Virus record (IMG/VR): IMGVR_UViG_3300036845_000183
Span: 1 to 55,180 of that record
Source: a virus
Taxonomy: Duplodnaviria > Caudoviricetes
DNA: 55,180 nt
Reading direction: 5' to 3' (one strand)
The notes under the pieces are model-generated. The model was not told the origin of the DNA and made no database searches. It was given only the letters and a program-made list of their open reading frames with translations. Shown piece after piece: positions 10,619 to 31,764 of this stretch. The position numbers were made by a program, and so were the translations under genes. Positions within the stretch are counted from its first letter, which is position 1. Every line of letters begins with the position of its first letter.

Positions 10619-10629
10619 ATCCGTACGTT

Positions 10630-11404: not shown

Positions 11405-11407
11405 CAA

Positions 11408-12382: not shown

Positions 12383-12579
12383 TTGGGTTCCTGACTTGCT
12401 TCGCAGTCGGCTTCATGCTCGGATGCATCGCATGGAAATGTTGGGACACGCCCCTTGCGCAGCTCAACCCGCCGGAGAATGAGCCATGATGGATTTATGG
12501 GCCGCATTTATGGTCTGCTTTGTAGTTGGGTTCGTTGTCGGCTGCGTCGTGACGACGCTGAAGCTTACGAGGAACGACG

Positions 12580-12783
12580 ATGCCAAATGATCCCGATGTC
12601 AAGGCGCTGGTGGAGCGGGCTACTTCTTTGGCGCGTGTACAGAACAGCTTACATGCGCAGGTCATATTGGAGTTAGTTGCCGTCATTACCGCCCAGGCAG
12701 CGGAGATCGAGCGGCTGAAAGTCCGGTGCAGTGACCTCACTCAATGCATGATCGCCGCCGCCATCCGAGGGCTCAAGTCATGA
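12580..12783 (+). CDS. Small coiled-coil hypothetical protein
   Basis: GAGG SD; AQAAEIERLK. Confidence 0.6.
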   Translation: MPNDPDVKALVERATSLARVQNSLHAQVILELVAVITAQAAEIERLKVRCSDLTQCMIAAAIRGLKS

Positions 12784-12971
12784 CCCTCAGCGAATTTGCC
12801 GCGCTCAAGCCAGGCGACAAGATTGAACTGCCGATGTCCGGCGGGCAGGGCACCGTGAACGAAGTCAAGAAAGACGGCGTTATGGTGACCTGGGGCAGTT
12901 CAATCATATCGTGGCATTACAGCGTCGTATCAACGGCGTGGATGCATTGGAGCCGAATTGACCCTGTTTGA
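12780..12971 (+). CDS. Small SH3-like hypothetical protein
   Basis: ATGA overlap; LKPGDKI motif. Confidence 0.6.
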   Translation: MTLSEFAALKPGDKIELPMSGGQGTVNEVKKDGVMVTWGSSIISWHYSVVSTAWMHWSRIDPV

Positions 12972-13120
12972 GCAAGCCGTGCTGCAGGCACTCGTAATTC
13001 TGGGCGGCACGGGTACTCATAACGCCATCGCCGGAGTGAGCGGGCGTCGCCAGCATGCGATGCAAGACAAAGGTTGGATTATCTGCGTGGGTCTGAAAAC
13101 GCATCGGAGACGGTACAACA

Positions 13121-13339
13121 ATGCAACTAATCGACTTGCCACCAGATCCGCGCGGCGGCCAGTTACGCCGTAAGTACGAAACTCAGCTACGTGACCGCGT
13201 CGGCATCGACCCTGCGATCGTCGCCGCCGAGCTGGGGCTGCAGGAGCGCACGGTCATTCGGTTGCAAGTCAAGCTTGGGCTGCGCGGCTGCCGCAACCAC
13301 ATCAACAAGGGACCTGCCAGCGAACGGGCTGTCAGCTAG
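13121..13339 (+). CDS. Small HTH-like DNA-binding protein
   Basis: PAIVAAELGLQERTVIRL. Confidence 0.55.
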   Translation: MQLIDLPPDPRGGQLRRKYETQLRDRVGIDPAIVAAELGLQERTVIRLQVKLGLRGCRNHINKGPASERAVS

Positions 13340-13407
13340 GGAGAGTGCCTGCCAGTGGTTCGCGAACCTGGTAACGCGCTCTCCCGTCATTTTGGAGGAC
13401 TCAGACC

Positions 13408-13575
13408 GTGGACAATGCTAATTTTCTGAAGATGGAAGCCTTGAGAACCGATTTGAATGCGAGTCACGATGCACGACTCTACGCCATCATTGACGCCCAA
13501 GCCGCGGAGATAGAACGGTTGAAGGCTGCTTTGGCCGAAACAAATCAGGTTTTGGGTCCAAACTGGCGTCCCTAG
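13408..13575 (+). CDS. Small coiled-coil hypothetical protein
   Basis: GGAGG SD; AQAAEIERLK as in 12580; translated by hand. Confidence 0.55.
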   Translation: MDNANFLKMEALRTDLNASHDARLYAIIDAQAAEIERLKAALAETNQVLGPNWRP

Positions 13576-13627
13576 ACCCGCTGCCATCTGCCGTGCTACC
13601 GTCCATGCCGGAGCACACGGAGCCGGC

Positions 13628-16600
13628 ATGTCAGGACAGCAAGCATTCGGAGCAGCGTTAAACCAGGGCTTTGGCACGGGTGGTGAAGGCGCCCCCGAGC
13701 CGCCGCTTGACCTAAGCCCGCCAAGCCCAGGCGCCGCGACGCCCGACCAACAGTCGCCGGTATTCGGGTCCGCAACCTCGGGCATGACGTTCGGCCAGCC
13801 GAAGTACACTACTGACCCGAACGCCACTGCGCTGGACCAGTCGGCTAGCCTCATTCAGCAGCGAATCGACCAAGCTACCAAGATCAGCAACAACCCGTTT
13901 GCCGCGATCTTCGCGCCGGACGAAGTCGCCAAGGCGCGGGACTTTGTGCCACAGGCTGCCGACGCGCTGCAGAAGATCAAGCAACAGCAGCAAACCGGCA
14001 TCGACGCCAAAGACACCGCGCGCAACTGGGGCTTGACCAACCCGAATCAGTTCGGGCCGCAAACGACCGACACGACGCTTGCAAACGAGGCGTTGCGGCA
14101 GTGGAAGGACGAAGGCAATTTCAACGCGTACAAGGCGTTGAGCGGCCTCGGGCCGGAATGGAAGAACCGTGCCGAGCTGTACATGCCCGACGCCATGGGC
14201 AAGTTCGCAACGCACGTCAACGCGGTGCAGGACGGCATTACGGCGCTGAATGCCGCGGTCAACACGCGCAGCCAGACGGCGTACGAAGCGGCGCGTGACA
14301 AGTTGATCAAGAGCAACGATTTGTCGGCTATCGGCGTGCGGCCGGAGAACATCCCCGGCACCAAAGAGGGCTGGCTTGCGGCGCGCGGGCCGCTGGAGGC
14401 ACAGTACAATCAGGCGTCGCGCACCATCAAGGCGTTTCAGACGCGCCAGGACCAGCTCAATCAAGCCACGCCAATCACTGACGAGAAAGTTGGTAGCCGT
14501 ATCGAAGGTACGTTTCAATTCGGCAACGGCGAGACTGTGCCGGGCTTCAAGGCTGTATCGCTGCCCGGTTACGGCGATGTGCAAGGCGTCATGGGGCCGC
14601 CAGGCAGCAAAGACATTGCGCAGCGCGGCGTGACGTGGTCGAACGCAGCGCCCGAACAGGTCAAGACTGTGCAGGAGCAGACCAAGGCGCCCGAGGTGCA
14701 AGGCGCCATCAACAAGTACAAAATGGCGCGCGAGTTCAATGAAACTGCGCAAAACGACAAAATGTACAAATCGGCCGCCGGCATTGCGCTGATCAGCGAC
14801 GAACTGGGCGCGATCGGCCGCGACGTGTCGGAGGGCTCGAAAGCCGCTGGCAGCATCGGCCTGACGAAGATGCTGGAGGCGAAGTACGGCAGCGTCGACA
14901 ATGCACGCAACAAGCTTGCGCAAGAGGCCAGCGCCTTGAAAGACTGGCTGAGCAAAGGCGGCGATAAGAACCCGCGCCTGTCGCCACCGAGCATTCAGGG
15001 CATCAAGGACGTGGCGCAGTACAAGCACGACCAAGCGTTGAAAGAAGTACGGGACCGCATCGGGCAGCCGCTCGAAACCGCTGGCCGCTACGGCATGATC
15101 TTGAAGAACCTCGGGCTTGACAAGGAAATTACGGACAGCCCCGAAATTCGCGGCGTTTATGACCAGGCGCTGGCGCGCGGCAACAAGGAACTCGATAGTT
15201 ACCCCATGGTGGCGATCGGCGACCGTCGCGTCATGCTCCCGAGCGGCAGCAGCGTGCAAGGCGCCATCCAGGGCACGATGCAGCATCCGGCCTTGACAAC
15301 GCCCGCACAGCCGGCGCAAGGTGGCGGTGCGCCGGCCTTAACCGGAGCTGGTACTAGCGGCCCCTCGGGGAGCCCTGGCCCAAATTCACCCGCAGGCGGT
15401 GCGGCCCCTACAGCCCCCCAGCCTCCAACTGTGCCTCCTGCGGGTGGAGGCGGCCCCGCCCCGCAGCCCCAAGTCATCGCTGGCCAGTCCGTGAATGCGC
15501 CGATGCCGCCGGGTGCGTCGCCAGGCTACATGCAGGCAACGCAGCGTATCGAAAGCGGCAACGAGGCCAGCCCGTGGGCCGCCGGCACGCCACGCTCCAG
15601 CGCGTCAGGTGCGTTCCAATTTATTAATTCAACATGGGCCGCCGACAAACCGCCGGGCGCCCCCGCTCGCGCGGGCGACGCCACGCCGCAGCAGCAAGCC
15701 GACGCCTTCGCCACCCGCACGGCGAAGAACGCCGCGACGCTGACCAAGGCCGGCTTGCCGGTGAACGATGTCAGCCTGTACGTGGCGCACAATCTCGGCG
15801 AAGGCGCCGGGCCGAAGCTGCTTCAGGCCGACCCGAATGCCGACGCACGATCAATTGTTGGTGATAAGGCCGCAAGCAACAACCCGCGATTTTTCCGCGG
15901 CAAGCCGACCGTGGCAACCGTGCTGCAGCGATATTCCGACGCAATGCAGCCTCCGCAGGGTGCATGGGGCCGGCTAAACAGTCTGTTCATGCAAGGTATT
16001 CCAGCCGGGCAGCGCGCACAGGCGGCTCGAAACGTTGGCACTGCAGCAACCGAAAACGCGCCGGCCATCGGTTCGACGCTCGGCGCCATCGGAGGGTCAG
16101 TTGCCGGGCCGCTGGGCACGGTTGGCGGCGGGGCGGCGGGCGGCGCCGGCGGCCAAGTGCTCAAGGACTACCTGCAGGGTAACCCACAAAGCCCGACAAA
16201 CATCGCTGAGCAGGGTGCACTGGGTGGCGTGCTCGGCGTCGCGCCGGCCGGCAAGCCGTTGGTTGGATTGGCGACGCGCGTGCTCGGCGCGGGCAGTGTA
16301 GAAGCTGGCGCGGAGGCGGCGCGCGGCGGCAGTGCAGAGGACGTGGTCAAGGCCGGCGCGGTCGGGTCCGCGGCGGCGGCCGGCGGCGAAGCGCTGGGCC
16401 GCTTCATCGGCTATTTGGGCCGCCAAGCGCATCAGTTCGTGAGCAAGTACACGCAACCAGCGCAGAAAGAGCTGTTCGAACACGGGACAAACTTGGCCGA
16501 AGCACGGGCGACGCTGGAGAGCACGGAGCCCAAGTTGCCGGGCGATGGCGGCGACAACCCGAAGTATGTCGCTGCTGAGAAAGCGGAGGAAAAGTCAAAG

Positions 16601-18308: not shown

Positions 18309-18436
18309 CCCAGCCCCCATGGAAGCCCCAGCCACGGCGTCGGCTTCGATTTCAGGTCTCTCCGAACCAAGCGTACGATCCGGTATGCGTGTCGCGCCAC
18401 GCTAACGGCGCCGATTGCAGCAAGTACATAGATCAT
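18305..18436 (-). CDS. Small membrane-associated protein (ends PTPWLGLPWGLG)
   Basis: GGAGGG SD; ATGA overlap with gcrA stop. Confidence 0.55.
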   Translation of the reverse strand: MIYVLAAIGAVSVARHAYRIVRLVRRDLKSKPTPWLGLPWGLG

Positions 18437-18819
18437 ACAACCCTCCGTGAAACGTGTTGATGAAATGCGCAGTAGCGAAAATCTATCGTTGACAGACCGC
18501 AGAACATCGCACCAACCGGCCACTTGCACATGCCGTCTTTAAGCTGGTCGAAGGTCACGGCGTCATCGGGTGGCGGCTCCACAGGGACGATTTTCTTTGC
18601 CCGCGCCACTACGGGTTTCTTCTCATACACCCGATGTTGATGGCCGCCGAACTTCGTATTCAGCGATCTGATACCGTACCGGCTGCGGAAGCTCATGATG
18701 GCGTTTCGCGTAGTGCCGAGTTCTTTCGCGATGCTGAGGCCGGAGCCACCTTCGGCCGAAAGTTTCGTGACCGCGGACAAGCGGTCGTCGTGCGTCATGT
18801 TTGCCCAGATCATTTTCAA
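18433..18819 (-). CDS. gcrA: GcrA-like cell-cycle transcriptional regulator
   Basis: S...IAKELGTTRNAI HTH and L....CKWPVG..FCG...YCAFH C-terminal motif. Confidence 0.88.
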   Translation of the reverse strand: MKMIWANMTHDDRLSAVTKLSAEGGSGLSIAKELGTTRNAIMSFRSRYGIRSLNTKFGGHQHRVYEKKPVVARAKKIVPVEPPPDDAVTFDQLKDGMCKWPVGAMFCGLSTIDFRYCAFHQHVSRRVV

Positions 18820-18968
18820 ATTCCGTTGATCGCAATCACGCTGATGAAAAATAGCACAATCAGCGCACCAGTGCCAAGTAACGCACCGATAAAGACGCGT
18901 GCTGCGGTTTCGCCAAATGCGAAGGCGATAAATCCAGCCAAGCCGGCAGCGATCAGCAGGATGTGCAT
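18816..18968 (-). CDS. Small two-TM membrane protein
   Basis: GAGGG SD; two hydrophobic helices. Confidence 0.6.
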   Translation of the reverse strand: MHILLIAAGLAGFIAFAFGETAARVFIGALLGTGALIVLFFISVIAINGI

Positions 18969-19065
18969 TTTACAACCCTCTAAGTGAAAAACAGGTACCA
19001 AACGGAGTACATCGCCAGCGCGACCGCGCCTTGCGGAATTGCCAAGATGTAGAACATGCGGTCGC

Positions 19066-19272
19066 TCATGATCGCGGCCTCACGTAAACCCAGTGCGTGG
19101 CGTCGGCTCCTGCTTTTTCGAGCCATCCGATGGCGATGGTAGCGCGTACTTCTGCCCTTGAGAACTCATCAGCGCTCGCGGCTTCCACCGCACGCCGTGC
19201 TGCGACCGTAGCCAGAACAGCCCACAGACGTTTCGATTCTCGCAGGACGGGTATGGACGTTTTGTTGCTCAT
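19066..19272 (-). CDS. Hypothetical protein
   Basis: GGAG SD. Confidence 0.55.
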   Translation of the reverse strand: MSNKTSIPVLRESKRLWAVLATVAARRAVEAASADEFSRAEVRATIAIGWLEKAGADATHWVYVRPRS

Positions 19273-19471
19273 CGTTAGCTCCAGGCAGATGCGCAGTAGG
19301 TTGGAATCTACGGCAGTCCCTGCGCATCCTTTTGCCCCTCCACCGCGTTTCCGAGGGCGCCAATTTTGCGTGTGTACGCCTAAAATGTATGACAGTCAAG
19401 AGCCTATTTGACGTCCGCCGCATTGTTCTGTACCGTGTGCTTGAGTTTGTCATACAATCGGAGGCCAAACA

Positions 19472-20230
19472 GTGGTCAATATCGTCAACCAGGGCACGCT
19501 TGGCGGCGGGTTTCGCCATTATTCCGGCCTCTTGCCTGCGATCAACGGCGCGGGCGATCCGCATCACGCATCTGTACGCCTTTTCCACGTCCCGGCGGCC
19601 AACGTGGCGACGATTTTTCGCGGCGACATCATGGTGTTCGGCGGCGCCGTAGTCGGCAACCAGGGCGCGGCGGATATCCCGTCGAACATTTCGGCGCCAT
19701 CCACCTCAGTTGTGATCGGCAACGGCGGTGGTTCGGGGCTCGGTAACCAATCGATCGCGCCGAACGTCATCAAATGGACGCCTGGCGACGCTACCACAAC
19801 CAGCATCATCGCGGGTGTTTGCGTCGGCTTCGGCCCGCTTACGCTGTACATGGCCAAGAACGGCTTTCAGTACATCCCGACGCTTACGGAGGCCTGGGTC
19901 TATGTCGAGACCGACCCGGAAATCGAGATGTACGCGACTGTTCCGACCGTACCTGGCACCGCATTCAATTTGCTGCTCAACGACGGTTGCGACGTCAAGG
20001 CGAACGCTGGTTTCCAGTCAACGCGGTTCGGCGTGTCCGGCGTGTCGATCGACCCGGCTTCTTTCGCCACCACGGCGACGCTGCCGCTTCGCGTGCTGTC
20101 GTCCGGCGAGCAGATCGGCAACGACCCGACCGCCACCGGCTTCGTTGCGAAGGTGACCTTCAACAAGCTTCGCCACTACAAAGGCAACCCCGGCAGCGCC
20201 GCCGCGAACGTTCCGTTCGTCGCGGATTAA
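19472..20230 (+). CDS. Putative head-associated / capsid decoration protein
   Basis: GGAGG SD, strong codon bias; IFRGD...GVCVG...VYVETDP...ATTATLPLRVL resembles the gene usually next to this capsid type. Confidence 0.6.
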   Translation: MVNIVNQGTLGGGFRHYSGLLPAINGAGDPHHASVRLFHVPAANVATIFRGDIMVFGGAVVGNQGAADIPSNISAPSTSVVIGNGGGSGLGNQSIAPNVIKWTPGDATTTSIIAGVCVGFGPLTLYMAKNGFQYIPTLTEAWVYVETDPEIEMYATVPTVPGTAFNLLLNDGCDVKANAGFQSTRFGVSGVSIDPASFATTATLPLRVLSSGEQIGNDPTATGFVAKVTFNKLRHYKGNPGSAAANVPFVAD

Positions 20231-20244
20231 CAGGAGCAACCACG

Positions 20245-20769
20245 ATGAAGAAATTTCTGATTGCCGCGCTCTTTGCGCTGCTTCCTGCGATGGCGTTTGC
20301 GCAAACCGTCACGTCACTTCCCGAGGTCATCCCCTCCGGCGCCGTGACCGATCTCGGCAACGGCCCGCTGGAATACAAGCTGGTACAGGGCAACGCCGGC
20401 TTGTTTACGTCGCAAGGTTCCGGTACCGGCAGCACGTCGGGTTCGTCTACGGCGCTGACACTGACCGCGGTACCGACAACGCCGCCCTGCCAAGGTTGCA
20501 TCATCGCGGGCGCCGGCATCACATCGGGCACGACGGTAGCTGCATTCAATGCGGTTACCAGCATCACGCTTTCGGCGGCGATGACCGTAGTTGGCGGTAC
20601 CACGGTCACGTGGGGCGCCGCGTGCCCCGCTATCGGCAGCGCGCCTTCGGCTCTGGTGCAGGCCAGCGTCGGCGGCGATGTTCCGTTCTATACGCAGTCT
20701 CGCGTCTGCGGCTCCGGCAACTTCGGCCCTGGCGCTCAGGTACTGCCCTTCGCCATCGGCGCGCACTGA
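20245..20769 (+). CDS. Secreted beta-rich protein with Sec signal peptide
   Basis: AGGAG SD; MKKFLIAALFALLPAMAFA|Q; Thr/Ser/Gly-rich; 4 Cys. Confidence 0.8.
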   Translation: MKKFLIAALFALLPAMAFAQTVTSLPEVIPSGAVTDLGNGPLEYKLVQGNAGLFTSQGSGTGSTSGSSTALTLTAVPTTPPCQGCIIAGAGITSGTTVAAFNAVTSITLSAAMTVVGGTTVTWGAACPAIGSAPSALVQASVGGDVPFYTQSRVCGSGNFGPGAQVLPFAIGAH

Positions 20770-20772
20770 GTT

Positions 20773-21843
20773 GTGTTCTGGCTGGGCGCCATCGTCGCAC
20801 TTTGCTACGTTCCGGGCTTAACCGGAGCGTATATTGCGACGCAGTGGCCCGTCTTGGCCGTGGTCATGTCGTTCGGTTTGTTGCGTAGCGCCCCGTTTAC
20901 GTTGCTTCATTTACTCGGGGCGCTTTTTCTTCTTTACGCTGCGGTGCATGCGTTCTTCACGCCCGCCCCCCATGACGCGGTGTTCGGCCTGTGGCTGGTC
21001 GTCATCATGGCGCTGACCGTCCGGTTTGGGTCGACCGTGACTGACACGCGCGGACTGTACGCGGGCTTGGCGCTCGGCGCCGCAGTATCGTCGGCCCTCG
21101 CTGTGGCGCAGTATTTCGGCCTGTACTGGCCGCCCATGTCGTCACCCGCGCCGGCAGGGCTCTACGTAAACAGCGTGCAGCAAGGTACTATTCTGGCGTT
21201 GCTGATCGTCGCCTTGATGACTGAGCGCATGTGGTTTTGGGCGCTGCCGCTTCTGCCGGGCTTGGTTCTGGCGCAGTCCCGCGGGGCATGGCTGGCCCTC
21301 GCAATCGGGCTGCTGGGTTGCCGCATCCGACATGTCGGAGTGCTGGGACTGGTTGTGGCGGTTGGCTGCGCTATTCTATCGGTCACGCTGTCATCATCCG
21401 ACCAGGAACGCATGCTGATCTGGAACGTCGCGTGGCACGGCCTGACATGGTTCGGTCGCGGACCTGGCATGTTCTATGCGGTGACGATTTGGCGAGAAGG
21501 TACGGCATGGTTTCCGGGATATGTGCACAATGACGCACTTCAGCTTATTTTCGAGTACGGCGTGGGGGCGGTGTTGCCGATCGCTGTTTTCGGTTTCGTG
21601 CTCAGTCGAACTGAGGCCAGAGAGTGGCCCGTTGTGCTCGCCTTTGTGGCGGCGAGCTGCTACACGATGCCGCTCTACATGCCGGTTACCGCTTTTCTGG
21701 CTCTGGTCGCTGTGGGGCGTGTTCTTCGTACTCATGCTCGGATTCTCGCTAGCAGCAATCACCGCCGACAGTTTGGCGTACCGAGGCGATCCGATGGCAG
21801 CTACCAAAGCGGCGCAACTGTTTCCGTGGAACCGAGTTATTAG
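20773..21843 (+). CDS. O-antigen ligase (WaaL/Wzy_C) or O-oligosaccharyltransferase-like polytopic membrane protein
   Basis: About 10 TM helices; GLYVN, QSRGAWLAL, ER..IW..A, FGRGPGMF, HNDALQL.FEYG.G. Confidence 0.85.
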   Translation: MFWLGAIVALCYVPGLTGAYIATQWPVLAVVMSFGLLRSAPFTLLHLLGALFLLYAAVHAFFTPAPHDAVFGLWLVVIMALTVRFGSTVTDTRGLYAGLALGAAVSSALAVAQYFGLYWPPMSSPAPAGLYVNSVQQGTILALLIVALMTERMWFWALPLLPGLVLAQSRGAWLALAIGLLGCRIRHVGVLGLVVAVGCAILSVTLSSSDQERMLIWNVAWHGLTWFGRGPGMFYAVTIWREGTAWFPGYVHNDALQLIFEYGVGAVLPIAVFGFVLSRTEAREWPVVLAFVAASCYTMPLYMPVTAFLALVAVGRVLRTHARILASSNHRRQFGVPRRSDGSYQSGATVSVEPSY

Positions 21844-21857
21844 AGAGAGGGTGCCCC

Positions 21858-22208
21858 GTGGCTGATGTCGATGCGCTAAACCTGTACCCCAATAGCTACA
21901 TGGCGAAGGCCGTCAAGCTCGGGCAATCCCGGTTCATTTCGGTGGACCAGCCCTCGCTACCGATCGGATCGCAGAACAACGTGTCAATCGCCGCGGCAAC
22001 GACGCTGACGGTGCCCGCCACAGCCGGCTACGCGATCATTACGGCGGTCGGCGGCCCGCTCTACCTCACGACGGATGGCAGCACGCCATCGGCTGCGAAC
22101 TACTCGATTACGCTGGCCAGTGGTGCTTCGGTGTCGTTCTACGGCCAAGCGACCCTGACGGCAATCAAGGTGCAGGGTACCAGCATGTCGGTGGAGTACC
22201 TGCAGTGA
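21858..22208 (+). CDS. Beta-sandwich-like putative virion protein (no signal peptide)
   Basis: GAGGG SD; LTVP..A..AII......YLTTDGSTP. Confidence 0.7.
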   Translation: MADVDALNLYPNSYMAKAVKLGQSRFISVDQPSLPIGSQNNVSIAAATTLTVPATAGYAIITAVGGPLYLTTDGSTPSAANYSITLASGASVSFYGQATLTAIKVQGTSMSVEYLQ

Positions 22209-22657
22209 GCGGACGATCATTTTTCTGGGTTCTGCTTCTCTTTGCCGTGCTCGCTGGAGCTAGCTTCGGATTACGAGCAGAACCCGGCTTGCCGAATGGC
22301 GGGACCGGAGGAGGCGCCGCCACTTCGATCACCATAACGCCGAACGTCACGCCAACTGACTGTTCGGGCTCTATTACCGCGGGCGGCACGGCGCAGCCGC
22401 TCATAGCCGCTCAGACTACGCTGCACGGCTTTACTGTCGTGAATATCGACACTGGGCACAATGCCGAGCCGCTATGGCAGTCATTCACGGGGACCGCGGC
22501 GCCTCTCACTGCCGGGTCTTATCCACTGCCGGCACCAACGGCGACGACATTTGCAGGCGCGGGGTCGTGGACTTCACCACCTGGTTTCGGAACCAATCAC
22601 GCCGTCTCGATTATCGGCGCTACGACCGGGCACATCTTTTCCTGCACGTGGTGGTGA
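22205..22657 (+). CDS. Secreted beta-rich protein with signal peptide
   Basis: MSGRSFFWVLLLFAVLAGASFGLRA|E; Thr/Gly-rich; 2 Cys. Confidence 0.75.
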   Translation: MSGRSFFWVLLLFAVLAGASFGLRAEPGLPNGGTGGGAATSITITPNVTPTDCSGSITAGGTAQPLIAAQTTLHGFTVVNIDTGHNAEPLWQSFTGTAAPLTAGSYPLPAPTATTFAGAGSWTSPPGFGTNHAVSIIGATTGHIFSCTWW

Positions 22658-22659
22658 AC

Positions 22660-23130
22660 ATGCGCGGTTTCATAACCCTCCTGTTTCTGCTATGCGCGAG
22701 TGCCGCCTCAGCTCAATGGGGCGGCGGGGGCGGCACTACGAATAGTGTTTCGACGGCCAGCAACACCCAGCGGCAGCTTTGCTCGATTCGCGCCGCGGAC
22801 TTCAATTCCACCGCCGATCAGTTGTGCGTGCTGCCGGCCGCCGTGACGACCTACAAGATCATTGAGATATTTGAGACCAACTGTTCGTCGTCACCCGGCA
22901 GCGCGGCCGGCGGCGTGTATACGGCTGCATCCAAAGGTGGTACCGCCATCGTCGCGGCGTCGCAGACGTTCGTGACGGCGCAGGCGATCGCACCGACCAT
23001 TCCCAACACCTTAGCCACCAACATGGCTACCACCCGTTTCACCGCCAACCCTCTGTACCTCAGCTTGACCACTCCGAAGGGCAGCGCCGTCACGTGCGAC
23101 ATGTACGTGATTGGGGTGGACCTGACGTGA
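22660..23130 (+). CDS. Secreted beta-rich protein with signal peptide
   Basis: MRGFITLLFLLCASAASA|QW; 4 Cys in mature part. Confidence 0.75.
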   Translation: MRGFITLLFLLCASAASAQWGGGGGTTNSVSTASNTQRQLCSIRAADFNSTADQLCVLPAAVTTYKIIEIFETNCSSSPGSAAGGVYTAASKGGTAIVAASQTFVTAQAIAPTIPNTLATNMATTRFTANPLYLSLTTPKGSAVTCDMYVIGVDLT

Positions 23131-23951
23131 ACTGGTTTCTGCTTGCCCTATTCTTGCTCGGCTCGGCACCAGCCGCCGCGCAGTGGGAGGGCTGCGCACC
23201 GGGGTTTTGCAACCTAGCGGGAACATCAGCAGGAGCGCCGCAAACGCTTGATGGCGTGGCTACCGGTACTGGCCACGGTAGCCTTACCGTGCCAACAGCG
23301 GGGCTGACGACGACCAAAACCAACGATATCTTGGTAGCTTACGTCGTAAATAACAGAACAAGTGGGCAGGGCAGCGCAACTACGGTGTCAGGTATCACGG
23401 ACAGTAGCTCGTTGTCGTGGGTTCGACGTGGCAGCGCTTGCAGTTTTCAGAGCGGCGCGGCGGGAACGCCGTTCGTCACGGTGGAAATCTGGTGGGCGCT
23501 GGCGGCTTCCGTACAGGCCTCTGACGTACTGTCAATCACGTTTGCGGCTGCGTACGACAATGCAACTGCTATCGTTTTCGGAGTTTCGGGAAGCAAGACG
23601 AGTGCACCTTTTGACGTAAACGCTTCGTTGCCAAATTGTGCGAACAGCAGCGCGACGTCGGCCCCGACTGCTACGGCCGTGTCCACTACGTGCAACAACA
23701 CGTTCATGATCGCAGGGGCTGGGTCGGCAAACACCGCAGCCAACCCAGGCGCTCAAACGGTCGGAACATCCCCAGTTACCTTTACCGCGATAAGCTTGAA
23801 CAACCTGCAAGCCGGGGGCGTTAATTTTATGCAAGCTGTCGCTGAATACTCAGTTTTTTCGTCGGCTCAGTCTTCCATCAGTCCTGGGTTTTCTTCAAAC
23901 TGGGCTGGCTGGGATATTTTGGTTGATGCTTTGCAATCTGCGTCATGCTAG
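23127..23951 (+). CDS. Secreted Ser/Thr-rich beta protein with signal peptide
   Basis: MNWFLLALFLLGSAPAAA|QW; 6 Cys; GTGA overlap. Confidence 0.75.
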   Translation: MNWFLLALFLLGSAPAAAQWEGCAPGFCNLAGTSAGAPQTLDGVATGTGHGSLTVPTAGLTTTKTNDILVAYVVNNRTSGQGSATTVSGITDSSSLSWVRRGSACSFQSGAAGTPFVTVEIWWALAASVQASDVLSITFAAAYDNATAIVFGVSGSKTSAPFDVNASLPNCANSSATSAPTATAVSTTCNNTFMIAGAGSANTAANPGAQTVGTSPVTFTAISLNNLQAGGVNFMQAVAEYSVFSSAQSSISPGFSSNWAGWDILVDALQSASC

Positions 23952-23961
23952 GGAAATAATC

Positions 23962-24219
23962 ATGCGCCTGACAATCATCAAAGACGACAATATGGTGTCG
24001 GTGAACGGCGAGCACCGCACGGTCGACTGCAGCGACTTGCCGGCCGACTTTCACGCGTTGCAGTGGTACGGCGAACTGAAAACCGGCGAGGTCGAGTACC
24101 GCGTGGTGAAGTGCGAGCACTGCGGCAGTCGGCACAAGAAATCGAACTTGGACATCTCGGACGTCGCCCCCTATCAAATTTACGTGGACCGGTGGAATGT
24201 TGCCAGACCCCAAAGTTAA
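23962..24219 (+). CDS. Tail-fibre-associated (chaperone-like) protein
   Basis: MRLTIIKDDNMV.VNG...HALQW....GEVEY pattern seen beside phage fibres. Confidence 0.55.
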   Translation: MRLTIIKDDNMVSVNGEHRTVDCSDLPADFHALQWYGELKTGEVEYRVVKCEHCGSRHKKSNLDISDVAPYQIYVDRWNVARPQS

Positions 24220-24550
24220 GTGCCCTGCGACGGCCTTCACGAAAACGTGTCGGTCGGTCGTCACTAAGTGCGACTGCCCGAAGTTCGTCACGATCCGCGG
24301 TAAAGACCCGCAGACGGGCGCCGAAGCTGATCGCGTCGGCTGCGTGGACAGCTTTCTGCCGCTGTTGCTGATCGAAAATGCGCAGATGTCGCGGCAAACG
24401 GGCGCCGCGGTGGAAAGCTTCCGTAACGAAGTTGTGAAGGCCAGGGAGGCGGACGAACAGGCTCGCCATGAGTTCTTAATGCTGGCGCGGGGCGGAAGGA
24501 GTAAAGCAGATGCGAACGGCAACTACTTACCGTCCCTGGATGGGACCTGA
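24197..24550 (+). CDS. Conserved Cys-rich phage protein (tail-fibre-associated)
   Basis: CP...C...C...GKDPQTG...C...LPLLLIEN....RQTGAAVESFRNE. Confidence 0.7.
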   Translation: MLPDPKVKCPATAFTKTCRSVVTKCDCPKFVTIRGKDPQTGAEADRVGCVDSFLPLLLIENAQMSRQTGAAVESFRNEVVKAREADEQARHEFLMLARGGRSKADANGNYLPSLDGT

Positions 24551-24551
24551 A

Positions 24552-24821
24552 ATGCATCCTGAGCACCACATTTTCTCCGACGGCGCTACGTGGTCGATCG
24601 CCTTCGCTACGACGTCCGTGCTGCCGTGGCTCGATACGCTATGGGAACACGTGCCTTCGATCACGGTGGCGTACATGGCCGTCTCAGGCGCGTTCATGCT
24701 GTTCCAGGTGGCCGATCGCATGGGGTGGCTGGACAACCTGAAACAGCGTCGGTTGCCGCTCATCTCAGTCGACGATCCACCACCGGAGTCCGACCATGCC
24801 AAAACGCTACGAGGCCGTTAA
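24552..24821 (+). CDS. Small membrane protein (holin-like candidate)
   Basis: Two hydrophobic segments and charged C-tail. Confidence 0.5.
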   Translation: MHPEHHIFSDGATWSIAFATTSVLPWLDTLWEHVPSITVAYMAVSGAFMLFQVADRMGWLDNLKQRRLPLISVDDPPPESDHAKTLRGR

Positions 24822-24942
24822 GCGCAGCATCCGCAAGCGGAACCCTGGCATGAGTTCCGCAGCGGTGAAGACCAAAGCAGCCAAGATCGCCAACGGAACA
24901 CGCAAGCCTGGGCAGGCGAAGGTAACTCGGGGCTCTAAATGA
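24796..24942 (+). CDS. Small very basic protein (MPKRYEAVKRSIRKR...)
   Basis: GGAG SD; translated by hand. Confidence 0.6.
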   Translation: MPKRYEAVKRSIRKRNPGMSSAAVKTKAAKIANGTRKPGQAKVTRGSK

Positions 24943-25127
24943 GCAACGGGCTTCCGAACAAGGCAAAAGTCGGTATTCCCGGCAAGTCGGTCGAGATTTC
25001 GCCGGCCACCTACTTCGTCGCCAAGCGGATGGAAGACCGAGGCTTGCTCCGGCCGGGAACAGCGCTTATGCTAGCGGCGACCCTGCCGAACACCAAACCG
25101 GCACCGAAGAAAGGTAAGCGGCGATGA
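24939..25127 (+). CDS. Small basic protein
   Basis: ATGA coupling both ends. Confidence 0.65.
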   Translation: MSNGLPNKAKVGIPGKSVEISPATYFVAKRMEDRGLLRPGTALMLAATLPNTKPAPKKGKRR

Positions 25128-25453
25128 CCCGATTCGTCGGACACAAGACGGGCTTCAACACCACTGGCAGCAACGATTGCTGCCCGAACGAAATGGGGCC
25201 GCCCAGCACGAAGTTCGGCGGCCGACCTGCCGTGCCTGCCGGGCCGCTCAAGCGCTACCCAGGCGCCACGGCGGATATCAGCAACGGCAATCGCCGGCTC
25301 GCCAAGTCGAAGCACGGGGCCGGCGAGGGCGATGGCGTGGCCTTCAAGACGCATACGGCCTTCGGCTCGGGCGAGAAGGGTTCACCCAGCGGCCGGAAGC
25401 CCGGCGGCATGGGCGGCAAGCGCAGCCGGGACATGTCCGACAACAAGAAATAG
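25124..25453 (+). CDS. Gly/Lys-rich disordered basic protein
   Basis: ORF track, strong codon bias. Confidence 0.7.
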   Translation: MTRFVGHKTGFNTTGSNDCCPNEMGPPSTKFGGRPAVPAGPLKRYPGATADISNGNRRLAKSKHGAGEGDGVAFKTHTAFGSGEKGSPSGRKPGGMGGKRSRDMSDNKK

Positions 25454-26828: not shown

Positions 26829-27266
26829 ATTTCAGGGTTCGACAACGGCACGCTTCAGGGTGGGATCTTCGCGCAGGCGAAGCAGTTCGGTTCCGTATTG
26901 CGCGGGCTCGGGCCGCCCGTGCCGCAGGCTGGCGTGGTCGGCGACCTGTATCTGGATTCGCAGACCCGGTTCCTGTATCTGAAGCGTTCGCCCGATGCGG
27001 GTGGCGATGTCGATCCATGGGGGCACTACCTGTTTCAGGTGCCTCTGACCTATGCTGCAACGCTGAAGTGGTTCAGCGCCTCCGCACCGACAAATGATGT
27101 CGGCGTTGATGGCGACTATGCGTTGCTTTGGGGCGGATACCCGAATTACGGGCTCCAGCCCTCAATTTTCGGCCCGCGGGCGCTGGGCGTCTGGCCGTCC
27201 AGCCCGGTGAACGTCGCCGTGACCTTGAATCCTCTGTACACTTCGGAGGATAGCCACGCGCTATGA
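26829..27266 (+). CDS. Tail adaptor-like protein B, paralogue of A, apparent ATT start
   Basis: AGGAGG-CGGCC-ATT TCA GGG TTC GAC AAC aligns codon for codon with ATG GCA GGC TTC GAC AAC at 26181. Confidence 0.8.
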   Translation: MSGFDNGTLQGGIFAQAKQFGSVLRGLGPPVPQAGVVGDLYLDSQTRFLYLKRSPDAGGDVDPWGHYLFQVPLTYAATLKWFSASAPTNDVGVDGDYALLWGGYPNYGLQPSIFGPRALGVWPSSPVNVAVTLNPLYTSEDSHAL

Positions 27267-28570
27267 GCTACAATTCCACCACAGATTTTTTGGGCCTTTG
27301 GCGGAATAACGCCGGCCAAGTCTCAAAAGTCGAGATGCCCGGCCTGGACTACATCGTGGCCGCGCTGGCGCGCGCCGGCCTCCTTGTGGTGTCGGTCTCG
27401 GCGACGGCGCCCGTCGCCAACCAGCCGACCACGGCTTGGCTGCAAACCGCCGTCCCGAGCTTTTCGGGCGAAGGTGTCTTCCAGCTCTGGAACCAAGATA
27501 CCGCTTCATATGCTCCGGCCACGCCCGAGCTGTTCATGGACTTCCTGCAAGCATCGGCGGGTGAGAGCGGCATATCGTGGTGGACGACCACGGGGCCGCC
27601 AATCAACACTCTCGGTCAAAACGGTGACTTGGCGATCCGCCTGGATCTCCCGAACGGCATTTACGGCCCCAAGACCGCAGGTGCTTGGCCGACCACGCCG
27701 ATATCGGGTACTGTAGCAGGATTGACGAGCGCGGAGTTCGACGGCCTGTTTGGCTCCACTCCGGGGCAGTTGATTTACCGCGGCGCTTCTGCTTGGCAGT
27801 CGCTTCCGGTCGGAGGGGGCAATAATACAGTTCTTGCGTCCCCCTTCGGCACCCTACCCGTGTGGGAGAGCTTCTATACATTGCTTGATAATTTGATAAG
27901 CAGTGCGCAGGGCTCCATAATGTTCAGGGGTTCTGCCATATGGCAGCCGCTGCCACCCGGCAGCACTGCAAATCAGTTGTTAGTTACAGGTGGCGCAGGC
28001 GCTAATCCGGCATGGGAAAATCTATCGACGCTTTTCGATGCGACTTTCGGAGGATCCGCACAGGGTAGCATTCTGTATCGTAATGCCAGTGTTTGGGCTC
28101 AACTAGCACCTGGCACCGCAGGCCAACTTCTGACCACGGGTGGCGCAGGCACGAATCCGGCATGGGCTAACTCTCCCAATCAATTTCCATCCGGCACTGT
28201 CATGCTATTCCAGCAGTCAGCCGCACCCACGGGATGGACGAAGTTAGTTGCAGTTAACGACGTAGGACTTCGTATCGTAAGTGGGTCCGTTACTGCGGTA
28301 GGCGGGGTGGCATTCAGCACGGTGTTTGCGCAGACTGCGGTAGGCAATACGACGTTGTCGGTCTCGCAGATCCCTGCACATACTCACCAAGTGGTGGCCA
28401 GCCCCGGCGTCAATGGAACGACGTATGCACCTAACACAGGTGCTAACCAAGGCGCCTCTCCTGCTTCATCCATCACCAGCGACGGCGGTACGGGCGGTGC
28501 GGGTGCTCATGCGCACGCCGTAACTCTAAACTTGTCCTACATCGACGTGATCATGGCGAGTAAAACTTGA
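27263..28570 (+). CDS. Tail fibre 1 with internal repeats and collar-like C-terminal domain
   Basis: Shared MSY...MPGLD anchor; three G.I.(Y/F)R....W..L repeats; FPSGTVMLFQQSAAPTGW, H.H motifs. Confidence 0.85.
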   Translation: MSYNSTTDFLGLWRNNAGQVSKVEMPGLDYIVAALARAGLLVVSVSATAPVANQPTTAWLQTAVPSFSGEGVFQLWNQDTASYAPATPELFMDFLQASAGESGISWWTTTGPPINTLGQNGDLAIRLDLPNGIYGPKTAGAWPTTPISGTVAGLTSAEFDGLFGSTPGQLIYRGASAWQSLPVGGGNNTVLASPFGTLPVWESFYTLLDNLISSAQGSIMFRGSAIWQPLPPGSTANQLLVTGGAGANPAWENLSTLFDATFGGSAQGSILYRNASVWAQLAPGTAGQLLTTGGAGTNPAWANSPNQFPSGTVMLFQQSAAPTGWTKLVAVNDVGLRIVSGSVTAVGGVAFSTVFAQTAVGNTTLSVSQIPAHTHQVVASPGVNGTTYAPNTGANQGASPASSITSDGGTGGAGAHAHAVTLNLSYIDVIMASKT

Positions 28571-30549
28571 TGTCCTATAGCCCGACGACTGATTTTTTCG
28601 CTCTCGTACGCCAGACTTCGGGCGGCGAAGAATTTGCGAGCATGCCGGGCCTCGATATGGTCGTGGCCGCGCTCATGCGCGCCGGCTTGGTTACCTTGGT
28701 GGTCGGGCAGACGGCGCCGATCGTAAATCAGCCAAGTACGGCATGGTTCAAGCCCTCGGTGCCTTCGTGGGTTGCGGAAGGTGTGCTGTTCCTATGGAAT
28801 ACGACCACGCAGCAGTACGAGACTGCGACGCCGCAGCTATGGACCAACATCCTCACGCTGCATGCGTCGTTCGTCGCCGCGGCTGCCACGAGCGATCCGT
28901 TATCCGTCAAGGCAACGGGTGCTCTGGGCGACGGCGTCACGGACGACACCTTTGCCATTCAGACGGCGTTGAATACGTCGAAAAATGTGTTTGTTCCTGT
29001 CGGTACCTACATCGTGTCGGCTACGCTGCAGATGCAGCCGGCCGGAGCAATTCGCGGCTCAAACAGGGACACCGTTCAGATACGGCGCTCGACGGCGTAC
29101 GGTCCTACACTGCAGTGTGGCAGCACTGTGATAGGCGTCAACGCGGGCTCCTGCACTGTCGAGAACTTGTGGTTTTTCCAAGTTACGCAATTCAACAACG
29201 GCCCGAGTTACGTCGCGGGAGTGTCGACGGTCATCCTCAACAAAGAAACGAACCCGCACGTTGCGATTTACAAAGGGCAGAATGTTTTGCTCAACGGTCT
29301 CCGGGCAACCGGTGCCGGCGGCATCAGCATATATGGTTGCACCGCCGCATTTTGCGACAGCCTGTTTGTTAACGGTTGCTGGGATGACAACCAAGTTGGG
29401 CTGCAAGAGTGCTTCGCCAACATCGGCTTTTACCAGTTCACGGATGCCAACAATAACGTTTCGTTCAACACAGAGTGCCGCGTTCGCAGGTGCTATTTGG
29501 GCGGCTTCGGCCACACGCCAAATCAGAATGTGACGATAGGCAACGTGGTCATTTCGTTGCCGGGCAACTTCGGCTCGGCTTCCGGCATTTACTGCAACGC
29601 TTCCGAGGGTTTTGAGGTCCACGACAGTTACATCGGCGGCAACAACCGCAACAACATCATGCTGGACCGACAAGGCATCTTCGGCTTGGTCCGCATCCAC
29701 CATAATTTCTTCGACAGCGCTCGCACAGGCTCCATAAAAATTCAAGCCAGTGCAGCGGGCGGCGGCCCCAGCATTGTTGAGATTGACCACAACGTCTCCC
29801 AGGGTTATGGCTTCGATCAGAGTTTCTTAGTTGTTGCTGATCTCGGTATCGGCGAGCCGGCTTGCGCCAATTTGGACATCAGCAATAACATCGGCCAAGG
29901 GTACAACCAGTGCGCCGTAAGCCTGAGCGGTGTGCGCGGCTTCTCGCACAGCAACAACCAGTGGCGCGACTACAACAAATGGGGCAACACGAACAACGAT
30001 CCGGCTATCAACTCGGGCCTGTACGCCCTCAACTGCACCATGGGAGACAGTTCGAACAACTGCTACGGCGGCGGCACCAACGATCCGTCCGGCGCCAATA
30101 CTTGCCAGTACGGAAGTACGTTCGTCAACCCTACCACTTGCACGGCTTCGCACGAGAACGGCCAAAACTTAGGTTTAATTGTTTTGGGTTTGTCGGGTTA
30201 CGAAAGCAATCTTGACCAGTGGATTGCTTACACCCCGACCGTTTCGTCACAGACAGGCGCCTACGGAGCTGCTTCGGCAACGGGCTTCTACCGGGTGGAC
30301 AGCAACACGGTTCACGTTCACTACCACGTAACAGTTACGGGCGTAGGCACTGCGACAACGGCGTCACTCATAACGCTACCCCTGACGGCTGTCGTACCCG
30401 TGCAGACGGGCTCGGCGCGCGACGAAACGGCTGGCTTCCAGTTGATTTCTTACTGTTCAGACCAAGTGCATCTGTTTCATCAGAAATACGATGCAACATT
30501 TCCGCCTGGCAGTTACAGCGGCAGTTTCACGTATGAAAAGATAAGCTAG
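28570..30549 (+). CDS. Tailspike with right-handed beta-helix (pectate-lyase-3-like depolymerase)
   Basis: SVKATGALGDGVTDDTFAIQTALN...VFVP.GTY; Asn-rich rungs. Confidence 0.88.
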   Translation: MSYSPTTDFFALVRQTSGGEEFASMPGLDMVVAALMRAGLVTLVVGQTAPIVNQPSTAWFKPSVPSWVAEGVLFLWNTTTQQYETATPQLWTNILTLHASFVAAAATSDPLSVKATGALGDGVTDDTFAIQTALNTSKNVFVPVGTYIVSATLQMQPAGAIRGSNRDTVQIRRSTAYGPTLQCGSTVIGVNAGSCTVENLWFFQVTQFNNGPSYVAGVSTVILNKETNPHVAIYKGQNVLLNGLRATGAGGISIYGCTAAFCDSLFVNGCWDDNQVGLQECFANIGFYQFTDANNNVSFNTECRVRRCYLGGFGHTPNQNVTIGNVVISLPGNFGSASGIYCNASEGFEVHDSYIGGNNRNNIMLDRQGIFGLVRIHHNFFDSARTGSIKIQASAAGGGPSIVEIDHNVSQGYGFDQSFLVVADLGIGEPACANLDISNNIGQGYNQCAVSLSGVRGFSHSNNQWRDYNKWGNTNNDPAINSGLYALNCTMGDSSNNCYGGGTNDPSGANTCQYGSTFVNPTTCTASHENGQNLGLIVLGLSGYESNLDQWIAYTPTVSSQTGAYGAASATGFYRVDSNTVHVHYHVTVTGVGTATTASLITLPLTAVVPVQTGSARDETAGFQLISYCSDQVHLFHQKYDATFPPGSYSGSFTYEKIS

Positions 30550-31764
30550 ATGAGCTATTCACCCACTTCTGACTTGCTGGCTTTGCTGCGGCAGACGCCG
30601 GGCGGCATGCGTTCGATACGTATGCCCGGCTTGGACTGGCTTATTTCCGGCATGTCGCGCGCGAACATTTTCAATCTGTGGGTGGCGCAAACGCCGCCAC
30701 CGGTTGCTGCGCTGTCGACAGTGTGGTTCAAGACCGCATTTCCAAACTCGGGAGCCGCCGAAGGTAAGGCCTTCATCTATAACGTCGCTGCAGCACAGTA
30801 CCAGCAAGCCACCCCGCAGCTATGGACTTCCGTTTTTACGAGCGGGTCAATCGACGCAGGCAGCATCACAACCGGCACGCTGAGCCCCGCCAGACTGCCC
30901 GCTTTCGGTTCGGGCGACGTGTCTTTCGCGGCAGCCGGCGGCGCCGGTACGATTGCCATGTCGGCGGTTACGTACGCCAAGATGCAGCTTGAAGGTGCGT
31001 CGTCGCTTTTGGGAAATCCGACAGGCGCACCGGCTACGATCAGCGAAGTTACCTTGGATGGTAGCTTTCTTACTTTCAGCGGCACCAACATCACGCTGGT
31101 AGCGCACGGCATCACATACGGCAAAATACAGAACGTCGCAGCGTCGTCGCTGCTTGGCAACCCGACTGGTGCACCAGCCACGGTTAGCGAAATCACTCTG
31201 GACGCCAGTTTTCTTACGTTCAGCGCCAGCGTCATCACTCTCGTAACGAACGGGGTTACGAATGCCAAGCTGGCGCAGATGGCCACTAAGACCCTCAAAG
31301 GAAACAACACGGGCGGCACTGCAAACGCTGCTGATTTGACGGTATCTCAGGTAAACGCAATGTTAGGCGTTGCGCAAACGCCGGGGCAGGTTTTTCTAAC
31401 GGGTAGCGATGTCGCTCTGAACAACACAGCGAACTATTTCGATGTCATCAACACTGGATCGATCGGCGCTTCAGGCCAAGTGTGGAAAATTACGGCTTAC
31501 GCCTGCGCAGCAGATACCGTTTCCGCAAAGATTAACGTCAGGATATGGGACGGCACCACCGTCTATGCCGAGTCATCGTCATTTGTCGGCGGCGGTAGCT
31601 TCACCAACACAATTCCCGTCATCGCTATCGTGTCGCTTTCGGCCGCTACGACTTTCAAGCTTTCCGCCAAGGACGTTACCTCTACTGGTGGGCTCATACA
31701 GGCTACCGGATTTGCCGGTACCGCCAACAAAGCAACCTGCATCATCGCAGAGAGGATTTCGTGA
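30550..31764 (+). CDS. Tail fibre 3
   Basis: Shared anchor; ITTGTLSPARLP; repeated (V/I)T.(A/G)K.Q...SLLGNPTG. Confidence 0.85.
   Translation: MSYSPTSDLLALLRQTPGGMRSIRMPGLDWLISGMSRANIFNLWVAQTPPPVAALSTVWFKTAFPNSGAAEGKAFIYNVAAAQYQQATPQLWTSVFTSGSIDAGSITTGTLSPARLPAFGSGDVSFAAAGGAGTIAMSAVTYAKMQLEGASSLLGNPTGAPATISEVTLDGSFLTFSGTNITLVAHGITYGKIQNVAASSLLGNPTGAPATVSEITLDASFLTFSASVITLVTNGVTNAKLAQMATKTLKGNNTGGTANAADLTVSQVNAMLGVAQTPGQVFLTGSDVALNNTANYFDVINTGSIGASGQVWKITAYACAADTVSAKINVRIWDGTTVYAESSSFVGGGSFTNTIPVIAIVSLSAATTFKLSAKDVTSTGGLIQATGFAGTANKATCIIAERIS

Follow-up and report, generated by a model that had tools for sequence, protein, structure and literature searches.

A conserved gene pair for a predicted exported protein and a WaaL-like membrane enzyme among the structural genes of a tailed phage

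The IMG/VR record IMGVR_UViG_3300036845_000183 (Duplodnaviria; Caudoviricetes), which represents an uncultured phage from soil, comprises 55,180 bases and is rated complete; it was analysed at its full length and is hereafter called the window. It carries a compact block of seven genes (19472-23951) in which a small protein with a predicted export leader (A) is encoded directly upstream of a polytopic membrane enzyme (B) that has the fold of the ligase WaaL. A and B form a fixed core pair in the phage clade to which this virus belongs, and A is tied to the ligase. We tentatively propose that B moves a host undecaprenyl-pyrophosphate (Und-PP) glycan onto an exported phage protein, with A as the first candidate, and we consider this a possible rather than a probable function. 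The genes of the block are listed below, where an arrow marks a predicted leader cleavage site and aa denotes amino acids.

Upstream gene: 19472-20230, + strand; 252 aa, conserved, without a leader, first gene of the block
A: 20245-20769, + strand; 174 aa, predicted to be exported, leader at residues 1-19, MKKFLIAALFALLPAMAFA↓QTV (AFA↓QTV)
B: 20773-21843, + strand; 356 aa, polytopic inner-membrane protein, Wzy_C family, WaaL fold
C: 21858-22208, + strand; 116 aa, without a leader, variable slot 3' of the ligase gene
D: 22205-22657, + strand; 150 aa, predicted to be exported, C-terminal ~104 aa forming a widely shared domain that ends in SCTWW
E: 22660-23130, + strand; 156 aa, predicted to be exported, ASA↓QWGGGGG, four cysteines in the mature chain
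F: 23127-23951, + strand; 274 aa, predicted to be exported, AAA↓QWEGCAPGFC, six cysteines, ~230-aa domain

Adjacent genes are separated by gaps of 2-14 nucleotides (nt) or overlap by 4 nt, with a gap of 3 nt between A and B, and F has a second possible start (GTG) at 23094. The open reading frames (ORFs) at 20245-23951 have the same coordinates as in a preliminary description of this DNA, whose further claims are taken up where the relevant evidence is given.

The A-B gene pair and the enzyme B

Two samples of viral loci were used for comparison. The first consists of 15 loci fetched around homologues of B, comprising 13 close relatives, which are uncultured phages of ~52 kb, and two distant loci (L015 and L016). 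The second consists of 24 loci carrying the D-type domain, and together the two sets provide 39 loci. The upstream gene, A and B occur together and in the same order in all 13 close relatives. A tblastn survey of the 15 loci recovered the upstream gene in 13 (60-78% identity), A in 13 and B in 15, as well as C in six, D in one, E weakly in one and F in none. Wherever A is found among these loci (13 of 15), it is located directly 5' of B. There is no case of A without B among the 39 loci, and A was not found in any of the 23 D-type loci that lack a ligase. At E<=1e-3, A has 334 homologues and B has 184, many of them on contigs of ~52 kb.

The preliminary description called for a check of whether the ligase is linked to leader-bearing genes in relatives, and this association is evident in all 13 close relatives and at both distant loci. 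The distant ligases, which are 37-41% identical to B, are also flanked by unrelated leader-bearing ORFs, which in L015 come after genes for a GP7-type capsid protein and the cement protein Bbp16. In bacteria, O-oligosaccharyltransferase genes often adjoin the gene for their acceptor, as exemplified by 21 of 31 PglL homologues that were reported to be next to pilin genes (PMC3643930).

In another possible reading, cargo would tend to gather at the junction 3' of the head genes, and B and the leader genes would be functionally unrelated. The behaviour of the remainder of the block is in keeping with this view. In most relatives, the slot 3' of B holds other leader-bearing ORFs of 213-406 aa, and its content differs in almost every relative. 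Moreover, the D-E-F genes move independently of B, and the ligase is present in L015 and absent from another locus, L027. C homologues reside at their own position in six of the 15 loci, while four others have an unrelated ORF of ~103 aa there; C itself has no family match and is not present in the 24 loci with a D-type gene. What this view does not accommodate is the invariant adjacency of A and B in 13 of 13 relatives (with the 3-nt gap in the window), the consistent presence of B wherever A is found among the 39 loci, and the recurrence of leader-bearing neighbours beside two distant ligases. An accidental arrangement fits the cassette but not A-B, and overall we judge it to be improbable.

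Protein A is conserved in a manner that suggests strong constraint. Among 39 aligned homologues, the mature chain exhibits 66% mean column identity, and four cysteines (C82, C85, C127 and C155), a Ser/Thr-rich stretch (GSTSGSS..LTLT) and a C-terminal IGAH are invariant; in the L012 homologue, both cysteines of the CxGC motif are lost together. The leader drifts in both length and sequence, while Ala at -3 and Gln at +1 are invariant and Ala at -1 is at least 90% conserved. The apparent constraint on the mature chain, including its invariant Ser/Thr-rich stretch, is counted in favour of A being the acceptor.

The family to which B belongs is represented by 38 sequences, of which 33 match the Pfam family Wzy_C (PF04932) at E<=0.01, the best of them at 2.5e-9, and none of the 38 matches a different family. 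Two members that were checked individually exceed the Pfam cut-off, with scores of 32.1 and 35.2 bits. A model of B generated with AlphaFold2 (predicted local distance difference test, pLDDT, 78.6; predicted template-modelling score, pTM, 0.81) aligns with WaaL chain 7tpj_B over 290 residues with a Z score of 18.0 and a root-mean-square deviation (rmsd) of 4.4, whereas the next matches, RodA and FtsW, reach Z scores of 9.2 or less. Foldseek also matches the model to 7tpg_B (E 9.8e-6).

Residues R215, R288 and H338 are essential in Escherichia coli WaaL and are conserved in PglL, as reported in that same study (PMC3643930). An hhalign comparison of the B family with E. coli WaaL yielded no alignment, and profile searches of the solved chains with the B family returned nothing relevant, and therefore the corresponding residues of B were mapped by using Pfam offsets and local motifs. 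The WaaL motifs TQTR/ATLL, GAR/LAMY and HLH/NEII correspond to AQSR170/GAWL, QER213/MLIW and YVH252/NDAL in B, where the local motifs are SRGAW around R170, ERMLIW around R213 and HND..L around H252. The Pfam offsets of B and E. coli K-12 WaaL agree for R170 and H252, and the pairing of R213 with R288 reflects motif likeness only. Across the 38 sequences of the B family, R170 and R213 never vary and H252 shows at least 90% conservation; these three residues are presumed to form the catalytic set.

The fold and the retained Arg/Arg/His set bear out the earlier proposal that a membrane enzyme of the WaaL/Wzy_C type lies among the leader genes. The accompanying statement that no glycosyltransferase or flippase gene is present also holds for the ~50 ORFs of the window that were scanned against Pfam. 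We assign B to the Wzy_C superfamily, with a WaaL fold, rather than to WaaL, PglL or Wzy proper. Neither tblastn against 50,697 cultured-phage records nor a B-family pattern scan of 185,579 species genomes recovered a relative of B, and we consider B to represent a phage-specific branch rather than a recent acquisition from a host. A complex prediction for B (residues 1-325) with mature A (residues 20-174) gave a score of 0.01 (mark 0.32), and nothing is drawn from this result.

Predicted exported proteins and the variable D-E-F cassette

Leaders were scored by rules that consider a charged n-region, an uncharged hydrophobic core, and small residues at -3 and -1. The scores obtained are 5.92 for A, 5.81 for D, 5.27 for E and 5.08 for F. 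Among the 67 genes of the window with coding potential, similar scores at a plausible start occur only for a 61-aa membrane ORF (18816-19001, - strand) and for an ORF at 34707-35291 (- strand). Scores of 5.1-5.9, together with the cleavage site that is kept in the A family while its leader drifts, identify these sequences as probable Sec type-I signal peptides, as had been proposed for the products of the genes beginning at 20245, 22205, 22660 and 23127. The two leaders that were said to end in AxA↓QW are those of E (ASA↓QW) and F (AAA↓QW).

The reported richness in Ser, Thr and Gly and the even cysteine counts are likewise evident. These three residues make up 34-41% of A, D, E and F, compared with 23% across a set of 12 long genes from this phage; charged residues account for 3-9%, compared with 19% in that set. 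The mature chains contain four (A), two (D), four (E) and six (F) cysteines, and four even counts would arise by chance alone about once in 16 trials. Conservation is the stronger evidence, and the leaders are best validated by their evolution. Two other sorting routes were examined and rejected: lipoprotein (type II) leaders, because a lipobox carrying Gly, Ala or Ser at -1 is absent, and exosortase/PEP-CTERM-type sorting, because none of the four proteins has a C-terminal membrane anchor.

Leader-bearing ORFs are about twice as dense near the ligases as in the flanking regions (24 in 104 kb versus 13 in 118 kb), where the filter used for this comparison dropped A due to a hydrophobic strand, and where further leader-bearing genes lie more downstream in the same operons. 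Among the 24 strong leader ORFs near ligases, 15 have Gln at the predicted +1 position and six more have AxA↓Q a few residues further on, as counted by eye. A looser scan of all loci gave 205 candidates, many of them spurious ORFs, and was used only to study the N-terminal module described next and not to derive rates.

This module, Q[FW]xxCxxxFC, is located directly after the predicted cleavage site in at least 11 leader-bearing ORFs with differing downstream domains. It is found in F of the window (23127-23160) and in loci L013, L019-L023, L026, L031 and L033-L035. It may serve as a common docking or disulfide module, and its placement ahead of varied downstream domains resembles the architecture of fibre adaptors. 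In L027, which carries no ligase, two ORFs (7713-8576 and 10504-11517) have twin-arginine-like leaders, SRRHLLRGG...ASA and TRRGLLRAAG...APA↓QFTGCLPAFC, and a third ORF of 535 aa (12448-14055) bears a leader and a tail-collar-like motif. If the twin-arginine-like leaders of L027 direct export by the Tat route, then fibre-like proteins would leave the cytoplasm already folded.

The D, E and F genes have a distribution of their own. D matches phrog_22789 (E 2.1e-7), and its 75 homologues are 60-77% identical over residues 47-150, where the shared domain is joined to varied N-terminal parts; of the 21 homologues that were fetched, 13 start with a clear leader, and several of the other eight are truncated. 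In eight of the 24 D-type loci, a homologue of E (46-58% identical) is directly 3' of the D-type gene, with a weak relative of F next in one of them. A weaker relative of E occurs in L016 on a leader-bearing ORF of 278 aa. This same locus encodes, at 3146-4012, a LamG protein without a leader that ends in ...LVGVGT. The domain of F has 992 representatives at E<=1e-3 and 348 at E<=1e-10, and is also present in giant proteins with Laminin_G_3, GP38 or SPRY. When 27 stand-alone relatives of F were fetched and read by eye, ~15 were found to have a leader and ~12 to start directly at the domain. Among relatives P0325-P0359 of F, many of those with a leader end in ...ATASCG...LLGVGK or a close variant; the leaderless relatives differ, and F itself stops at ...SASC.

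The preliminary description depicted the exported proteins as virion-like. For A, the AlphaFold2 model is all-beta (pLDDT 86.7), and among solved structures its central part comes closest to 8eci, a 126-aa protein of Arthrobacter phage Bridgette that is named 'Decoration protein'. The match is weak by Foldseek (E 0.13, probability 1.0, 33% identity over 73 columns, rmsd 2.7), has a VIA Z score of 7.5 with cupins just below at 7.4, and gives an hmmsearch E value of 0.5. In a viral structure library, the partial matches (E 6e-5 to 1e-2, TM ~0.3) are to tail fibre, collar and virion structural proteins, and the Atlas contributes only unnamed viral clusters at 0.84, with structural rows at TM <=0.51. 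The virion-like character is upheld to the extent that A resembles the Bridgette protein, albeit weakly, and that relatives of the cassette proteins include Tail Collar or LamG-like parts; the fold matches are all weak and partial.

These observations bear on a distinct possibility, in which A, and perhaps D, E and F, would be particle proteins that are exported to acquire disulfides (and a glycan where B is present), and that bind to completed virions only once lysis has mixed periplasm and cytoplasm. Decoration proteins and fibres of model phages can indeed bind particles in vitro. In addition to the resemblance of A to a capsid decoration protein and to fibre, collar and virion structural proteins, this possibility draws on the leader-bearing genes that follow capsid and cement genes in three phage groups, represented by L015, L021 and L027. 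In L021, for example, the order is portal, GP7 major capsid protein, Bbp16, one ORF and then four leader-bearing ORFs. Other points of agreement are the Tail Collar domain in a leader-bearing relative in L026 (E 2e-5), the ~12 of 27 relatives of F that carry the same domain without a leader, and the adaptor-like placement of the Q[FW]xxCxxxFC module before different C-terminal domains. Set against these are the leaderless state of the phage's own three fibres, the weak and partial nature of all fold matches, the frequent occurrence of beta-sandwich, lectin and collar domains in ordinary secreted proteins as well, and the failure to find a cultured relative by blastn of the region or tblastn of B. 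We consider attachment after lysis to be unlikely. The broader notion that several groups of soil phages build part of the particle outside the cytoplasm seems to us similarly improbable. According to this notion, decoration, fibre and lectin proteins with Sec leaders (and also Tat-like ones in one relative), whose AxA↓Q sites precede cysteine modules, would be oxidised in the periplasm, coated with host glycan where the phage supplies a WaaL-like enzyme, and attached to completed virions only at lysis.

A possible acceptor for B and the genome setting

From the gene order, the conserved leader and cysteines of A, and the fold and retained residues of B, we infer a donor, an acceptor, a glycosylation step and a later role for the exported proteins as follows. 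Late in infection, A would be exported by the Sec system, its leader cut at AxA↓Q, and the mature protein oxidised in the periplasm to give a four-cysteine beta-sandwich. B would take a host-made, Und-PP-linked glycan and, at the periplasmic face, transfer the glycan en bloc to an acceptor. The donor is expected to be host-made because no genes to make one were found among the ~50 ORFs scanned. The likeliest acceptor would be the phage's own exported protein, with A first, such that A and B constitute a dedicated transferase/acceptor pair like TfpO-pilin or PglS-ComP. D, E and F would be swappable exported fibre-like or lectin-like proteins that do not depend on B, and that B could modify when they are present. 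A protein acceptor is favoured because the A-B linkage is exclusive, because bacterial transferases adjoin their acceptors, and because there is no sign of lysogeny that would make seroconversion useful.

A serious competitor is a role for B in remodelling the host surface, wherein B would change or mask the receptor of infected cells by working, as ligase or polymerase, on the lipid A-core, O-antigen or exopolysaccharide of the host. Superinfection would be excluded and progeny kept off debris, and the exported proteins would separately act in exclusion or adhesion, either in the periplasm or at the surface. The sole solved relative of B is a true, lipid-directed WaaL ligase (Z 18.0), and known phage Wzy_C genes encode polymerases for seroconversion that are accompanied by small partners, either membrane or exported proteins, as in D3 and Variovorax phage VarioGold (PMC9658991); no other function is known for phage genes of this family. 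Furthermore, the window encodes three tail fibre/spike paralogues, one of which (28567-30549) has a pectate-lyase-like domain (Pfam E 1.4e-9), and thus the phage probably binds a surface polysaccharide. The rapid turnover of the D/E/F slot is also like that of arms-race genes.

Conversely, no integrase or repressor is present among the ~50 ORFs scanned and the pattern scan of species genomes yielded no relative, so that a lysogen open to conversion is lacking. Across the clade, B belongs to the fixed core next to structural genes and is not a sporadic moron, and it is ~50-60 residues shorter than the WaaL proteins with which it was compared (356 aa versus 403 and 419). Surface remodelling also leaves the strict conservation of A and the exclusive A-B linkage unexplained. 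On balance, we regard it as somewhat unlikely.

Several observations weigh against transfer of a glycan to an exported protein. B itself scores 20.1 bits against Wzy_C (E 5.8e-4), below the Pfam cut-off of 31.7. The lipid, glycan and protein acceptors of WaaL, Wzy and PglL, respectively, are not distinguishable from sequence. The preliminary description suggested the use of family models to separate WaaL from PglL. Wzy_C is matched by 33 of 38 members of the B family, and PglL_A (PF15864), the motif that sets PglL apart from WaaL (PMC3643930), by none of the 38 at E<=0.01. A is not known to have a sequon. The Bridgette match is not significant when taken alone, and all structural matches of the A model are weak (best Z 7.5, Foldseek E 0.13).

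The cassette adds to these concerns. A B-like ORF within 10 kb, or any other ORF there with seven or more hydrophobic windows, occurs at just one of the 24 D-type loci, and this locus is the same contig as L013. None of five complete D-type genomes has a match to Wzy_C or to the B profile, whereas the same profile search finds B in the window (E 2.2e-6). The order D-E-F is kept after the capsid and cement genes in these ligase-less phages, and the cassette is accordingly mobile or swappable and independent of B. Moreover, the capsid proteins of L027 (without a ligase) and L015 (with one) are 91% identical, and so the ligase comes and goes between near relatives. The earlier suggestion that the four leader proteins and the ligase form one unit is not sustained by these results. 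Leader-bearing proteins of the D-E-F kind function without phage-driven glycosylation, the export of fibre-like or lectin-like proteins extends beyond the ligase, and the latter is an add-on.

With regard to the setting of the block, the gene set has the appearance of a short-tailed phage. Recognisable genes encode a family-A DNA polymerase, a primase-helicase, a Gp2.5-like single-stranded DNA-binding protein, the large terminase, an internal protein of 1323 aa with a transglycosylase part, and a portal of 647 aa with distant likeness to the portals of Alcaligenes, Caulobacter, Pelagibacter and Roseobacter podophages. The three fibre/spike genes are consecutive (27263-31764) and share an N-terminal adaptor, MSY..T.DF..L.R...MPGLD, with differing bodies, and none of the three has a leader. 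The family scans also revealed no integrase, repressor, Iap-like or Oac-like match and no lipopolysaccharide (LPS) gene among the ~50 ORFs. A GNAT gene (47635-48138) is 24 kb distant from the block. A blastn search of 19400-24600 against cultured phages gave no match, and an NCBIfam scan of all seven proteins of the block matched no family. In a scan of 18800-25200 for promoters and terminators, terminator-like sites were no more common than in shuffled sequences (7 versus 6.3), and the limits of the operon are consequently not defined.

The block was said to follow directly on a head-associated gene, and this is retained only as a lead. The upstream gene (19472-20230) has no Pfam, PHROG or NCBIfam match, BLASTP reveals no similarity between its product and Bbp16 of L015, and its closest named Atlas clusters are phage cement families with scores of 0.82-0.85, which fall short of the bar of 0.9 for this tool. 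Its product is possibly a capsid cement or decoration protein.

Additional features of the window were recorded. The ends of the record (1-2728 and 52520-55180) repeat each other over ~2.7 kb with 83-99% identity, and an exonuclease gene is present in two copies within these repeats (662-1648 and 53047-53979). The record is probably self-overlapping, a join of two strain variants, in which case the true genome would be nearer to 52.5 kb, as in the relatives. A GcrA-like gene (18433-18819, - strand; Pfam E 8.7e-8) hints at an alphaproteobacterial host, and together with the distant likeness of the portal to those of Caulobacter, Roseobacter and Pelagibacter podophages it serves as a lead towards an alphaproteobacterium of soil. 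Other features include a ParB-like gene (41315-42271, - strand; PHROG E 4e-8) and ~10 tandem 21-nt units at 45796-46005 that encode a heptad-like NTANIAT repeat, located within an ORF (45613-46134) that has weak tail-fibre PHROG matches. The ORF at 34707-35291 (- strand) adjoins head genes and encodes 194 aa, of which the N-terminus resembles a leader (...TCTLADA↓ATT) and the C-terminal tail is hydrophobic and rich in Gly. It has no family match in our scans, and its product may be a membrane or spanin-like protein.

Significance and comparison with known systems

Phage Wzy_C genes with leader-bearing neighbours are already known from temperate phages (PMC9658991), and transferase/acceptor pairs from bacteria (PMC3643930). 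Our survey of the literature, in which most subscription journals were outside the scope, found no core WaaL-like enzyme of an apparently lytic phage that is paired with an exported decoration-like protein. Within the same scope, we found no description of widespread export leaders on fibre-like phage proteins.

Glycosylation of exported phage proteins by B would, if it occurs, constitute the first known periplasmic system for protein glycosylation that a phage encodes, and the pair would form a compact and self-contained transferase/acceptor unit (356 aa and 155 aa) of possible use in glycoengineering. If the exported proteins end on particles, then virion assembly would include an extracytoplasmic step, which could explain disulfide-stabilised and glycan-cloaked surfaces of soil phages; we know of no model tailed phage that shows such a step. 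If B instead remodels the host surface, then apparently lytic phages, and not only lysogens, would have enzymes of the seroconversion type, and would have them as a core function. The families are large in either case (184 relatives of B, 334 of A, 75 of D and 992 of F), and none is annotated.

Among characterised proteins, B most resembles WaaL from Cupriavidus metallidurans (7TPG/7TPJ) and E. coli K-12, with which it shares the fold (over 290 residues), the Pfam domain and the Arg/Arg/His motifs. By family knowledge, its donor is presumably also an Und-PP-linked glycan. It differs in that it is shorter (356 versus 403-419 aa) and has no sequence-level match to the solved chains, and in that it is phage-encoded, outside of any LPS locus and fixed beside an exported protein.

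TfpO-pilin and PglS-ComP are dedicated transferase/acceptor pairs, and PglL is much longer than B. In PglL and the TfpO/PilO-pilin and PglS-ComP pairs, the same R/H/R set is present and the gene for a Wzy_C enzyme adjoins that for a small exported protein. This arrangement is reported for 21 of 31 PglL homologues (PMC3643930). The phage pair is distinguished from these by the lack of PglL_A matches (0 of 38) and by the nature of A, which is predicted to be a beta-sandwich with a cleaved type-I leader rather than a pilin.

The seroconversion modules of temperate phages are similar in that a phage Wzy_C protein is co-oriented with small membrane or leader-bearing proteins. Examples are wzy-beta/iap/oac of Pseudomonas phage D3 and VG_p25-p28 of Variovorax phage VarioGold, where VG_p25 is the Wzy_C gene and VG_p26 is leader-bearing (PMC9658991). 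However, these modules are sporadic cargo of integrating phages and are located beside lysis or lysogeny genes, whereas B is a core gene of its clade and resides among structural genes.

The leader-bearing proteins of the block also invite comparison with those of well-studied phages. Lom and Bor of lambda, Llp of T5, and Cor are leader-bearing proteins of late operons that act at the envelope, often in exclusion. The block resembles them in that its leader-bearing proteins are presumably transcribed with virion genes. In contrast to these single small genes, which are not accompanied by a glycan enzyme, the phages described here encode four to six such proteins per genome, and these have fibre-like, lectin-like or decoration-like domains, a common AxA↓Q site and N-terminal cysteine modules.

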